In this document: one piece after another, positions 49,252 to 52,454 of the stretch
How the letters are laid out: every line of letters starts with the position of its first letter
How positions within the stretch are numbered: the stretch's first letter is position 1
From: a virus
Lineage: Duplodnaviria > Heunggongvirae > Uroviricota > Caudoviricetes
Strand: one strand, 5' to 3'
IMG/VR virus record: IMGVR_UViG_2859793810_000007
DNA: 55,029 nucleotides
The notes under the pieces: generated by a model
The model's database searches: none
Seen by the model: the letters and a program-made list of their open reading frames with translations, nothing else
What the model was told of the DNA's origin: nothing
Translations under genes and position numbers: made by a program

Positions 49252-50883
49252 ATAAACCGTGCTGTGTAACTGCTGTGGATCAAATCTGACCACAACTTTT
49301 TTCACTCCGGCATTCATTAATGCCATGTTGTAATAAACGTTTTTCGCGCCTTTAAGGGAGCCGCCAACTTTAAGCGTAAACTCGCCTTTGCGTGAAACGT
49401 TCACCGCCTCGGCAGGCAGTAACAGCATCCGTTTTTGTTCTTCGGTTGGCTTACGCACAATCGTTCTGGCGTATTCACGCTCGAAAACATCATCAAACGA
49501 GAGTTTGCCCCCGCACATTTCTGTTTCACGGCCTGTTCTGGCATTGAACATCGCCACACCTTCGGCAAAGGTTTTCAGAAACAGCTCTGCATCAACAGCG
49601 TGGTCGCCATAGTTATCAGGTTTTGCCTGCGGATTTGGCCCCGTATATGCGCCAGCCAGTGCCGGATGCTTATCAACGTATTCCTCAAGCCCACCAACAC
49701 CGAAAGCACGTTCAACAGGTTTTGCCTGGCCCCAGCCTTTACCGGCAACAACGCTTGTCCAGTGCATTTTCGCACCCATCAGTAAAAACAGTCCTTTTGG
49801 ATCGTCCTCTTTTACCTTAAAGCGGTAGCGATTGGGCGCGCCTCCCGTCAGCCATTTATTCGCAGCACCACGGGTGTTATCAATGGTGATGTGAAAATCC
49901 TCCGGGATACTGTAGCGAGTCACAACATCCATGAACGAGAGGCGAATTGAATCAATGTTCTCGCTCACATCGCAGCGCCAGCCCAGAATTTTTCGGGTTT
50001 TCACATCCTGCCAGAACCATGTTTTCGGACGGATCACATCACCGTTAAACCAGCGTACAAAGACGTTATGCAGATAACCGTCGCCGTTGATCCACTGCAT
50101 GGCGTCCAGGTGTTCCACAGTTCGCTGCTGTGCCGGTATCAGATGCATCAGTGCATGTTCACCTTCACGACAGGCAACAACCATTGCCTCGTCCAGTTGC
50201 TGAATCCGGCGAAAGGCCGTGGCACGGGAGGGAATACTCCAGCCATGCTCGCGGGCTGCCAGTTCCAGACGCTCATAACATTTGCGGAAGGCGGGTTTTT
50301 CCGGTCGCAGATAATCTGCAATCAGAAACTGCCAGGCATCCTCGTCAAATTCACTTTTGTGAACATTGCGACGGGATGCTCCACGTCCATCAACAAGTGC
50401 AGCCGCCCAGTCAGGCTTCGCAAACTTCTGTACCTGGTAATACTTGTCCCGCAAAGTGGATGCGCTGACCTGGTAATGCCCTGCAACGGTCGCAAAAGCC
50501 GTTTTCGTTGAAATCCCCTGGTTCAGCATTTCGTCTGTGGCCTGAATTGAGGGCAACCATTTTTCAGCCAGGCTGCGCTGGGAATCGCTGGCTTTATCCC
50601 ATTTGCTCCATAGTGCCTCACGATCATAATCATGAGCTTCCAGCGTGGGGCGGGCGATTTCAAAACATCCCTGACTGGTTTTAAATTTTCCTTGTTGGAG
50701 CAAAACTTCAGCTCGAGCAATGTTAGGAAGAGAAGATATATGGTATTCGTAAGCAACCCCTCTAATTCCTTCTCTTCTTCTCTTGAGCCATCCTTCTCTC
50801 TGAGCTCTTTTGTGAACCCCCATTAATGAACCAGGTAAACCAGATAAACCCATGCATTCAATTGCTGATATCCACTCTCTCAT
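49252..50883 (-). pseudogene. A: Mu transposase A, 3-prime truncated by IS600
   Basis: 543 aa collinear with MuA (…[24 protein letters not shown]…[10 protein letters not shown]…); stop supplied by the IS600 terminal TCA. Confidence 0.9.
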
Positions 50884-51094
50884 TGTGATCCCTTAGATAT
50901 CTACTAGGCCAAATTTCCTCAGGTTTCATGTTTAAGGCGTCAGCAATAATGCGTTCACCTTTAGGCCATGGCCTGACTAATGCATTTGCAAGCGTCCCGG
51001 TTGAATAACCTGAACGTCTGGACAATTTTGCCAGAGGGGTTCCTGTTTTTTTGAGGGCCGCAATCACGTCGGCCCGATGCCAATCGTTACTCAT
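50858..51094 (-). CDS. ner: Ner-like DNA-binding regulator
   Basis: [16 protein letters not shown]...[30 protein letters not shown] matches Mu Ner. Confidence 0.8.
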
Positions 51095-51265
51095 CTTTCG
51101 CACACCAACCATATTGCGTATGATAAAGGGTTACCAAAACAAATAATTCGTCTTGATTATCTGTTTTATACATTACCAAATAAACCAAACCGGTTTATAT
51201 CAGTTAATGTGGTTTATTTTGTAATCCATTGATTTTTATATAGATAAATCTGGTAAACTTAGTTT

Positions 51266-51775
51266 ATGAAAAGCGCAAATGAGATAAACCAGTGGATGAC
51301 ACCCAAACAAATTACTGAACTGGATGGAATGCCTGGGACAATACAGGGGGTGCATAAACGAGCAAAGAAAGAAGGATGGCCGAAGCGTTCACAAGAAGGG
51401 CGTCGCGGGCCTGGGGTTGAATATATCCCGGCAATACCGGCTATGCAAAAAATTGCTATCGAAGAAATGAATGCTGATACATTGAAAATGTTCTCCCTGT
51501 TAATCAATAAACTAGGAGAAAATGAAGTCCGAGAGATAGAGCTAAACATGGCTAAATATGGGCTTTCCGGATTAATGCAAGAACGCCCCTCCATCTCCGT
51601 TGACACCCTATTGGCAACGCTGGGTATTGATCGCCAAACACTACAAACAGCTTTGGCGCTGCATAAATTACCTCCAGAAACTCGCCAAGAGATTTTGTCA
51701 ATGTATGGTGTTCATAAACAGGAAGAGCCTGTAGCTCCTTTGTTGGAACCACAAGATGCGAAAAAAGCCGTATAA
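51266..51775 (+). CDS. c: Mu c-type repressor-like protein
   Basis: 169 aa; N-terminal DNA-binding domain (GMPGTIQGVHKRAKKEGW) homologous to the MuA N-terminal domain; divergent from ner across a 150-bp operator-like region. Confidence 0.6.
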   Translation: MKSANEINQWMTPKQITELDGMPGTIQGVHKRAKKEGWPKRSQEGRRGPGVEYIPAIPAMQKIAIEEMNADTLKMFSLLINKLGENEVREIELNMAKYGLSGLMQERPSISVDTLLATLGIDRQTLQTALALHKLPPETRQEILSMYGVHKQEEPVAPLLEPQDAKKAV

Positions 51776-52112
51776 CAACCATGAGCCAGCTAAAACATAC
51801 TTCACCTCACATAATCACACATGTAACATACCTAAACGGCATGAGCTGATTTGTGATATGAGTCATTTGGTGACAGCCTGGTTGTTATCGGTTTTGAACG
51901 TTTTTTGAAGCTATGATTGAAATGATTTATAGTGTTTTTGTTTTTCGTTTTTTCAATGAAACAAAAGCAATTTTTTACTATCTTTCGCGTTTCATTGGTT
52001 AACGCCTAAAATTTGTACTACAGGCTTGCAAGCCCCACCAAATCTAATCCCATCAGATCCCGAATAATCCAATGTTCTCCCGGTTTTTTCGTACTTCAAG
52101 TGAATCAATACA

Positions 52113-52454
52113 CTGGGGCAAACGCTAACCCGTTTCCGCCAGCGTAAACATATGCTGGAAAGTATTGATAGCGCCAGCCAGAAGCAAATTGATGAGATGT
52201 TTAATGCCTATGCTCGCGGTGAACCCAAAGACGAACTGCCGACCGGCATTGACCCCTTGACGCTAAACGCGGTGCGAAAACTGTTTAAAGAGCCTGGTGT
52301 GCAACATACGGCAGAAACGGTGGCGCAGGCACTGACCATCAGCCGCACCACTGCCAGGCGTTATCTTGAATATTGCGCCAGCCGCCATCTGATTATTGCT
52401 GAAATTGTTCACGGCAAAGTTGGCAGACCACAACGCATATACCACAGTGGGTGA
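52113..52454 (+). pseudogene. dpiA: dpiA (citB) response regulator, 3-prime fragment; 5-prime part displaced by the Mu-like insertion
   Basis: frame reads LGQTLTRFRQRKHMLESIDSASQ... to ...RRYLEYCASRHLIIAEIVHGKVGRPQRIYHSG from the first base after the Mu end. Confidence 0.8.

Follow-up and report, generated by a model that had tools for sequence, protein, structure and literature searches.

What is DNA resembling one end of phage Mu doing beside a part of the chromosomal gene dpiA, and what became of the rest of the phage? The window, by which we mean the whole 55,029-nucleotide stretch of DNA that was analysed, raises this question near its right end. There, a short block of Mu-like genes lies between a copy of the insertion sequence IS600 and an incomplete dpiA gene.

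A Mu-type left end at codon 114 of dpiA

Positions 49252-52112 of the window correspond to the left 2.86 kb (~2.9 kb) of a Mu-like prophage, in reverse complement. When this DNA was compared with phage Mu using megablast and blastn, nucleotide 1 of Mu fell on position 52112. Two segments aligned, namely 51667-52112 with Mu 447-1 (91.7% identity) and 49250-50703 with Mu 2964-1511 (97.8% over 1454 nt). The left end is ~97% identical to nucleotides 1-355 of Mu, and the terminal 23 nt, TGTATTGATTCACTTGAAGTACG, are identical to those of Mu. The features of this end and of the adjoining host gene are as follows.

51776-52112, minus strand: Mu-type left end (attL), with its terminus at 52112, recognized by alignment to Mu and by site matches
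52086-52102: site L1, exact match to the consensus
51982-51998: site L2, exact match to the consensus
51942-51958: site L3, one substitution
52113-52117, plus strand: CTGGG, presumed 5-bp Mu target, read from the sequence and adjoining the left end
52113-52454, plus strand: 3′ part of dpiA, codons 114-226 and the stop codon, with Pfam domain HTH_64

The consensus for MuA-binding sites, YMNNWRAARYRCGAAAR, has two exact matches in the whole 55-kb window, which are L1 and L2, while 0.03 matches are expected by chance. L3 is conserved save for one T-to-A change. The coordinates of all three sites were cross-checked against the annotation of D108. The end thus has the 5′-TG terminus and the three MuA-binding sites within the left ~180 bp that are typical of Mu-like phages.

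Homology to E. coli starts exactly at the next base, 52113, which corresponds to codon 114 of dpiA in E. coli IAI1. Positions 52113-52451 encode residues 114-226 of DpiA with 100% identity (tblastn), and dcuC and pagP follow downstream in normal E. coli synteny. The fragment encodes the HTH output domain of DpiA only, without the receiver domain. Codons 1-113 of dpiA are absent from the 55-kb window, as is dpiB, and the gene therefore does not have the 226 codons, the receiver and HTH domains and the position beside dpiB and dcuC of a full dpiA. Mu prefers targets of the form N-Y-(G/C)-R-N, and the sequence CTGGG fits this preference.

The earlier note took the sequence ending at 52112 to be the reverse complement of the Mu left terminus, with the dpiA reading frame following directly, and both observations hold to the base. 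Its conclusion that dpiA was interrupted by a Mu-type transposition is supported as well, in that one precise end, the left one, has the sequence that such an event would be expected to leave.

Genes of the stub and their immunity type

Inward from the left end, the window contains the following features, up to and including the IS600 copy at which the Mu-like DNA ends.

51266-51775, plus strand: c repressor gene, 169 aa, intact, of a non-Mu immunity type, with Pfam domain HTH_Tnp_Mu_1
51095-51265, no strand assigned: c-ner intergenic control region, with presumed operators, early promoter and enhancer
50858-51094, minus strand: ner, 78 aa, intact, with Pfam domain HTH_35 (E = 4e-29)
49252-50883, minus strand: truncated transposase gene A′, 544 codons, with Pfam domains HTH_Tnp_Mu_1, HTH_Tnp_Mu_2, DDE_2 and a partial Mu-transpos_C
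47988-49251, minus strand: IS600, 1264 bp, with orfA (100 aa) and orfB (272 aa)

Open reading frames and Pfam domains together reveal the layout of Mu, in which a leftward c and then rightward ner and A genes lie just inside the left end. The A′ protein corresponds to residues 1-545 of Mu A, with 91% identity overall (BLASTP against Mu A). It keeps the DDE triad (D269, D336 and E392) but lacks the C-terminal 118 residues of the full-length (~663 aa) Mu transposase. IS600 directly adjoins A′, and its terminal TCA (49249-49251) supplies the TGA stop codon of the truncated gene. The earlier note had proposed that c, ner and the first 543 codons of A occur in Mu order and orientation and that IS600 ends the A reading frame. 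The order and the role of IS600 are borne out, but the number of codons is 544.

The A′ protein is predicted to be catalytically incomplete, and the stub is immobile, i.e., it is neither transposable nor inducible. The window lacks B, the late genes and attR, which a complete prophage would have. Apart from the stub, the only Mu similarity in the 55 kb is a stretch of 98 nt with 76.5% identity to a tail-fibre-assembly gene, and this stretch belongs to the lambdoid prophage discussed below. The c-ner control region carries repeated ATAAACC/GGTTTAT motifs, and inverted repeats are present. A scan of this region for promoters and terminators gave no result above chance, and the functions presumed for it are those that the Mu layout suggests.

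Judging by its sequence, the block consisting of c, the operators, ner and the N terminus of A is not of the Mu, D108 or SfMu immunity type. The best matches to c among 50,697 phage records have 28-36% identity, and these do not place it with any of the three phages. E. coli and Salmonella prophages encode the nearest relatives of c (85-87% identity), and >1000 contigs carry the exact protein under the name of a Shigella flexneri repressor.

The stub shares with Mu (NC_000929) the terminus, L1-L3, the c-ner-A layout and the DDE triad. However, the similarity is uneven. Residues 62-544 of A′ are 97% identical to Mu A, but residues 1-61 are only 44% identical; c has 35% identity (33% in a global alignment) and Ner has 58%. 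Moreover, the stub holds only 2.86 kb of the 36.7 kb of Mu, without B, the late genes or the right end.

The same mosaic pattern occurs in D108, the classical heteroimmune relative of Mu. There, conservation covers the ends and most of A, and a single swapped block takes in c, the operators, ner and the N-terminal enhancer-binding domain of A. The block in the stub is a further, different allele, with c only 28% identical to that of D108.

SfMu has an A gene that is 97.8% identical to that of the stub, but its c is only ~30% identical. On Southern blots, most S. flexneri strains shared bands, from which a cryptic SfMu remnant was concluded (Jakhetia and Verma 2015, PMC4406740), although that work gives neither location nor junctions for the remnant. 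The EcoRV fragment predicted to carry the A′ part of the stub measures 3.8 kb, close to the 3.5-3.7-kb band in the same study, which is compatible with a common identity but does not prove it. The low similarity of the c genes is consistent with the negative c-ner PCR outside the SfMu host (PMC4406740).

A close counterpart of the stub is a prophage in E. coli UMNF18, which is located in yphC (NZ_AGTD01000001.1, 3086976-3118052), measures ~31 kb and is full-length, from B through mom. The entire stub aligns to it in one piece at 91.9% identity, and the two belong to the same immunity group: identity is 84.6% for c, 92% for residues 1-61 of A and 90% for the control region. The Ner proteins have few differences in the 78-aa core, and their 85.7% identity is calculated over 84 columns that include the N-terminal extension of the longer ORF. 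Unlike the stub, the UMNF18 prophage has a right end, which is identical to that of Mu, as well as a clean 5-bp duplication, TCCGG, and it occupies another host gene. We take the phage to have belonged to a rare immunity group, heterologous to those of Mu, D108 and SfMu.

The IS600 boundary and the missing part of the prophage

The IS600 copy at the inner boundary is 99.8% identical, over 1264-1265 nt, to an annotated IS600 (ORF1, ORF2) of pCP301. A simple insertion of IS600 is marked by a 3-bp direct repeat of the target. The flanks of this copy are TAT and ATT, i.e., there is no such duplication, and the copy therefore represents a recombinant junction and not a simple insertion. Three IS600 copies occur in the window, in both orientations, and none of the three has matching flanks.

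The DNA on the far side of IS600 is unrelated to the stub and lambdoid. It consists of a head module that is 82% identical to Salmonella phage SEN34 and 95% identical to that of the temperate phage vB_EcoM-606R2. In other strains, lambdoid lysis genes lie before this module, which there follows Rz1 and a small terminase subunit. The head genes (portal, a protein with a “Mu F” domain and major capsid) could be taken for the inverted rest of the Mu-like phage. We rejected this reading on the grounds that these genes have no nucleotide homology to Mu, and the affinities and neighboring lysis genes just described also rule it out.

At its left end, the window starts on the bio-ybhB side of the lambda attachment site. 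In the window, ybhB and dpiA share the plus strand, whereas in E. coli IAI1 they lie on opposite strands, with ybhB on the minus and dpiA on the plus. Since ybhB and the ipaH prophage at the lambda attachment site are inverted relative to dpiA, the stub sits at a rearrangement breakpoint.

Very probably, the locus as a whole reflects a Mu-like insertion in dpiA that was later reduced, by IS600 and a rearrangement, to an immobile, fixed stub. In an ancestor of S. flexneri, a Mu-like phage would have integrated by Mu-type transposition at codon 114 of dpiA, and this insertion would have separated the receiver domain of DpiA from its DNA-binding domain. Later, IS600 would have inserted in the transposase gene, following codon 544. 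Through a rearrangement at this IS600, part of an unrelated lambdoid prophage cluster, located at the lambda attachment site, would then have taken the place of the DNA beyond it, which comprised the end of A (118 codons), B, every late gene and the right end. What would remain, and would now be fixed in the species, is the 2.86-kb stub with attL, intact c and ner genes and A′. We infer both the order of these events and the role of IS600 as the agent of the rearrangement.

The mutually inverted chromosomal flanks of the window, compared with E. coli, would also fit a reading in which nothing was lost. If IS600 mediated an inversion, its reciprocal junction, at a distance of ~150 kb, would then hold the remaining prophage and the 5′ half of dpiA. 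The endpoints of the inversion would be at ~653 kb and ~806 kb in the coordinates of E. coli K-12. The order at the reciprocal junction would be dpiB, the 5′ half of dpiA, the Mu right end through the 3′ end of A, IS600, the remaining lambdoid DNA and ybhC. The occurrence of IS600 in both orientations, with no copy having matching flanks, fits this reading as well, and S. flexneri genomes are known to differ from one another by inversions that IS elements mediated (PMC1550401).

We nonetheless consider such a relocation unlikely. The predicted reciprocal junction consists of the 5′ part of dpiA, CTGGG and then the Mu right end, beginning TGAAGCGG. The exact 28-nt form of this junction, in a scan that fails on a single mismatch, has 0 matches in the genome collection, which includes two genomes with the left junction. 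The protein searches, which are affected by the fact that PGAP emits no proteins for pseudogenes, were similarly negative for Shigella. Residues 546-663 of Mu A matched no Shigella ORF, and the hits were limited to one IS10 junction and to partial ORFs at contig ends, from E. coli and Salmonella. A query of DpiA(1-115) fused to read-through of the Mu right end matched only E. coli frameshift alleles, again with no Shigella ORF. Neither part is represented by an abundant Shigella ORF, although the collection has the exact A′ protein in 945 indexed blocks. Additionally, Mu or ybhC neighbors were present in 0 of 10 sampled contexts of IS600 OrfB in S. flexneri genomes. When Mu, the UMNF18 prophage and the cit-dpiB and ybhC regions were compared by BLAST with the sampled loci, the only hits were weak similarity to tail-fibre genes and, in a single locus (CP179952.1), matches to the ybhC region; the genome of this locus keeps an E. 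coli-like arrangement at this site. Given that the predicted junction and Shigella ORFs for A 546-663 and for the DpiA(1-115) fusion were not found, the right end, along with the 5′ half of dpiA, was probably lost rather than relocated.

Look-ups of common host proteins carry little information at this locus. A look-up of DcuC gave E. coli contexts only and is uninformative because the DcuC allele is a common one. A large E. coli protein cluster would mask any intact DpiA of S. flexneri.

It is very unlikely that Mu itself made the inversion. Mu replicative transposition generates inversions bounded by Mu copies, and an intramolecular event of this kind could have joined the left end in dpiA to the region of the lambda attachment site, with IS600 trimming the Mu DNA later. 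The Mu terminus at the left-end junction is clean, which fits this model. However, no Mu DNA lies beyond IS600 or elsewhere in the 55 kb, and the non-matching flanks of all three IS600 copies in the window already indicate reshuffling driven by IS600. An extra event would be needed, and nothing more would be explained.

Finally, we regard it as very unlikely that the dpiA fragment is a duplicated piece, with a functional dpiA intact elsewhere and the regulator not inactivated, because in every carrier genome the fragment runs unbroken through dcuC, pagP and cspE to dacA, over >10 kb of normal E. coli synteny, and is therefore the resident chromosomal locus, and because the host DNA that is duplicated when Mu transposes amounts to only 5 bp.

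Conservation and significance of the stub

The stub and both of its junctions are 99.6-100% identical in ten other genomes of the S. flexneri lineage. The stub is a fixed, defective remnant, and it represents ordinary genome decay that is already annotated in public genomes. No specific publication emerged from literature searches that paired S. flexneri with the cit genes, or with Mu-like phages and dpiA.

That the fixation of the stub reflects selection, acting via loss of DpiA or via phage immunity or interference conferred by c-ner and A′, seems to us quite doubtful. Under beta-lactam stress, DpiA triggers the SOS response; it also activates citrate fermentation and makes plasmid inheritance less stable. 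If selection did act, then loss of DpiA could be pathoadaptive, e.g., by stabilizing the virulence plasmid or by aiding the citrate-negative phenotype. Alternatively, the intact c-ner region and an inactive A′ that binds phage ends would give immunity to, or interference with, Mu-like phages of the rare immunity group.

Knowledge of transposable phages is not changed by this locus, whose value lies in annotation and in reconstructing genome decay in Shigella. A cryptic Mu-like remnant of S. flexneri, of a kind whose existence was earlier inferred only by hybridization, now has an exact location and both junctions, and the junction may be usable as a species-specific marker. The stub adds one more allele to those recorded for the exchangeable immunity block of Mu. 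For S. flexneri itself, the stub lies at one breakpoint of an inversion of the chromosome between the region of dpiA and the lambda attachment site, and it points to a knock-out of the response regulator DpiA that is fixed in the species.

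The Mu left end and its junction with dpiA

The left 2.86 kb of a Mu-like prophage lies reverse-complemented within dpiA (49252-52112, hereafter the stub). In BLAST comparisons with phage Mu, window positions 51667-52112 align with Mu 447-1 (91.7%) and 49250-50703 with Mu 2964-1511 (97.8%). The former alignment places Mu nucleotide 1, reverse-complemented, at 52112, and the terminal 23 nt of the left end are identical to Mu. The 17-nt MuA-site consensus used in the GenBank annotation of the Mu-related phage D108 has two exact matches in the whole 55-kb window, versus 0.03 expected by chance. 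The MuA sites are:

52086-52102, L1, exact consensus match
51982-51998, L2, exact consensus match
51942-51958, L3, conserved except for one T-to-A change

From exactly 52113 on, 5394 of 5426 complete E. coli genomes align, through dpiA, dcuC and pagP. Codon 114 of dpiA in E. coli IAI1 starts at this position, and DpiA residues 114-226 are 100% identical. The junction reads ...GAATCAATACA directly followed by CTGGGGCAAACG..., and the CTGGG beside the left end fits the Mu target preference N-Y-(G/C)-R-N. An earlier note had proposed that a Mu left terminus ends at 52112 and that the dpiA reading frame follows directly; both proposals are borne out.

The stub comprises the following features:

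51266-51775, plus strand, repressor gene c, 169 aa, Pfam HTH_Tnp_Mu_1
51095-51265, c-ner control region, 171 bp, between c and ner
50858-51094, minus strand, gene ner, 78 aa, Pfam HTH_35
49252-50883, minus strand, truncated transposase gene A', Pfam HTH_Tnp_Mu_1, HTH_Tnp_Mu_2, DDE_2 and Mu-transpos_C (positions 1-50 of 61)

These positions and strands, together with the Mu-type domains, agree with the Mu order and orientation claimed for c, ner and A. The truncation of A was also correctly recognized, but after 544 codons rather than 543. A' corresponds to Mu A residues 1-545, with D269, D336 and E392 retained. Missing are the last 118 residues, which on the published MuA domain map comprise the last part of domain II-beta together with the whole of domain III. 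MuA depends on these parts to assemble its tetramer, for catalysis and to contact MuB and ClpX. Given that there is neither a right end nor a B gene, the element is immobile. Both c and ner have intact reading frames and could still be expressed, and the stub may confer immunity against phages of the same group.

A rare immunity block

The source phage is not Mu-immune, a point missed previously. Similarity to Mu falls away sharply over roughly Mu positions 355-1510. By tblastn, the c protein shows 35% identity to its Mu counterpart (33% in global alignment); it is 28-30% identical to those of D108 and SfMu, another Mu-related phage. Relative to Mu, Ner is 58% identical, and residues 1-61 of A, the enhancer/operator-binding subdomain, are 44% identical. 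D108 differs from Mu by the same modular swap, but the stub carries another allele.

Only 1 of the 5426 complete E. coli genomes, UMNF18, aligns with the whole stub (91.9%). Its prophage of about 31 kb is sited in yphC; the right end is identical to that of Mu, and the insertion shows a clean duplication of 5 bp, TCCGG. It resembles the stub in c (84.6%), ner (closely similar), the A N-terminus (92%) and the control region (90%). Protein searches added only a handful of relatives (85-87%), in Salmonella. The immunity group is rare, yet already in databases. Within 51095-51265, ATAAACC/GGTTTAT motifs recur several times, and 51172-51187 forms a 16-nt inverted repeat with 51210-51225. Both features are also conserved in the UMNF18 prophage, and they are candidate operators of this group.

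IS600, lambdoid DNA and an inversion breakpoint

The window contains three copies of IS600:

47988-49251, matching the annotated IS600 of pCP301 at 99.8% identity, flanks TAT (A side) and ATT (capsid side)
24865-26128, flanks GGG/AAC
35272-36508, inverted, 27 bp shorter, orfB shortened, flanks GAC/CTG

The first copy adjoins A', and its terminal TCA supplies the TGA stop, so IS600 ends the A reading frame as had been suggested. The 3-bp repeat expected at IS600 flanks is absent for all three window copies, which therefore look like recombination junctions. A Mu-like A gene is also interrupted in an unrelated sample (L021, Logan SRR11783474 contig 135, nt 1-45), about 19 nt upstream of the IS600 boundary in A here. 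The interrupting end reads ...GGGGATCTCTCAG, presumably the IS10 outside end, and we take the nearness of the two points to be coincidence.

BLAST detected no other Mu DNA in the window except 98 nt at 76.5% to a tail-fibre-assembly gene. Plus-strand genes at 39530-48034 encode small and large terminase, portal, a 'Mu F'-domain head protein, scaffold, cement protein and major capsid. We rejected these as Mu genes; they are lambdoid late genes converging on A', 95% identical to those of temperate phage vB_EcoM-606R2 and 82% to those of Salmonella phage SEN34. Upstream of them, other S. flexneri genomes carry Rz1 and a phage cargo gene.

The window begins with ybhB (1-477), whose product shares 99% identity with E. 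coli YbhB; ipaH and a lambda-like prophage come next, which marks this end as the bio side of the lambda attachment site. E. coli IAI1 has ybhB and dpiA on opposite strands, minus and plus respectively, whereas both are on the plus strand here. The window therefore holds an inversion breakpoint joining K-12 about 653 kb to about 806 kb. Most economically, this breakpoint is sited at the IS600 ending A', and the inversion was probably mediated by IS600.

Other elements of the window were also noted. The ipaH E3-ligase gene occupies 1060-2823. The lambda-like prophage, at the lambda attachment site within 1-24863, runs on the minus strand from tail fibres back to terminase. Several of its structural genes are in two ORFs (J, 5719-7008 and 7032-9197; portal, 20881-21504 and 21419-22474), so it is defective. 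A 1250-bp IS3-family element, which we take to be IS911, has two copies (31985-33234 and 38219-39468, 99.9% identical), and other S. flexneri genomes differ in the arrangement of the segment flanked by these copies. A phage primase-like gene (Toprim_2; 33201-35060, minus strand) runs into this element. Directly after its GHGK Walker-A-like motif is an intein-like insert, with Pfam scores of 24.5 bits for Hom_end_hint (under the cut-off of 32.1) and 24.1 bits for LAGLIDADG_3 (over the cut-off of 22.5). In the second phage, an IS2-like element (40959-42232) interrupts the large terminase gene.

Conservation in Shigella flexneri and fate of the right part

The window comes from the chromosome of Shigella flexneri. 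A public assembly collection indexes the exact 544-aa A' product in 945 blocks; complete S. flexneri genomes are among the carriers, one of which, CP001383.1 (strain 2002017), already has the ORF annotated as 'putative transposase'. The c repressor and the dpiA fragment are each deposited under S. flexneri names in >1000 contigs. Ten further genomes of the S. flexneri lineage share a 3.27-kb segment (IS600 end, stub and dpiA fragment) at 99.6-100% identity, and two of the ten match it without a difference from end to end. Thus, the insertion, the IS600 truncation and the junctions are older than the diversification of those strains.

In a species-representative genome collection, the left junction has two carriers, S. 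flexneri SFBU1023 (CP182556.1) and CP178302.1. The latter is labelled 'Escherichia coli strain ECMA0423', yet bears this S. flexneri-specific junction; many of its genes are fragmented, and there are 12 mismatches within this 3.3 kb. Probably, an error-rich Shigella assembly was given the wrong label and became a species representative.

Jakhetia and Verma (PMC4406740) observed Southern bands common to most S. flexneri strains, inferred a Mu-like remnant, and obtained no SfMu c-ner PCR product outside the SfMu host strain. The stub A gene is 97.8% identical to SfMu A, and both observations are in line with a stub that combines an SfMu-like A with a heterologous immunity block. The EcoRV fragment predicted to carry the A' segment (3.8 kb) is compatible with their 3.5-3.7 kb band, but is not proof.

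The 5′ half of dpiA is absent from the window. The predicted reciprocal junction, dpiA ...TATGAACGNCTGGG and then the reverse complement of the Mu right end, had 0 exact matches in the collection with the two left-junction carriers, and such exact-match scans are fragile. Protein searches found no Shigella ORF with DpiA(1-115) fused to anything, and none with A residues 546-663; what these searches did return was E. coli frameshift alleles, partial ORFs at contig ends and a single IS10 junction. Taken together, the negative results speak for, but do not prove, loss of the right part. That it was instead moved by inversion, without loss, seems unlikely, and a second, intact dpiA elsewhere is highly improbable, as the fragment runs on into >10 kb of normal synteny. 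Separately, an independent dpiA-inactivating allele occurs in E. coli (P0018). It arises by loss of a single nucleotide at codon 112, two codons before the site of Mu insertion, and its 117-aa product (93 member sequences) ends in ...IAYNGWGKR.

The history with the best support comprises three steps. Mu-type transposition into dpiA would have been followed by insertion of IS600 into A, and then by an IS600-associated rearrangement, most likely inversion and loss. The outcome is an immobile remnant, and the earlier account was right in essentially every particular. For the host, the sequence shows that the receiver and output domains of DpiA have been separated. This regulator acts on the genes for citrate fermentation, and links to the inheritance of plasmids and to beta-lactam-induced SOS have been described for it; that its loss is adaptive in Shigella is speculation. 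The stub is a real but unremarkable cryptic prophage remnant within a Shigella genome riddled with IS elements, and its precise mapping adds one more example of a well-known kind.
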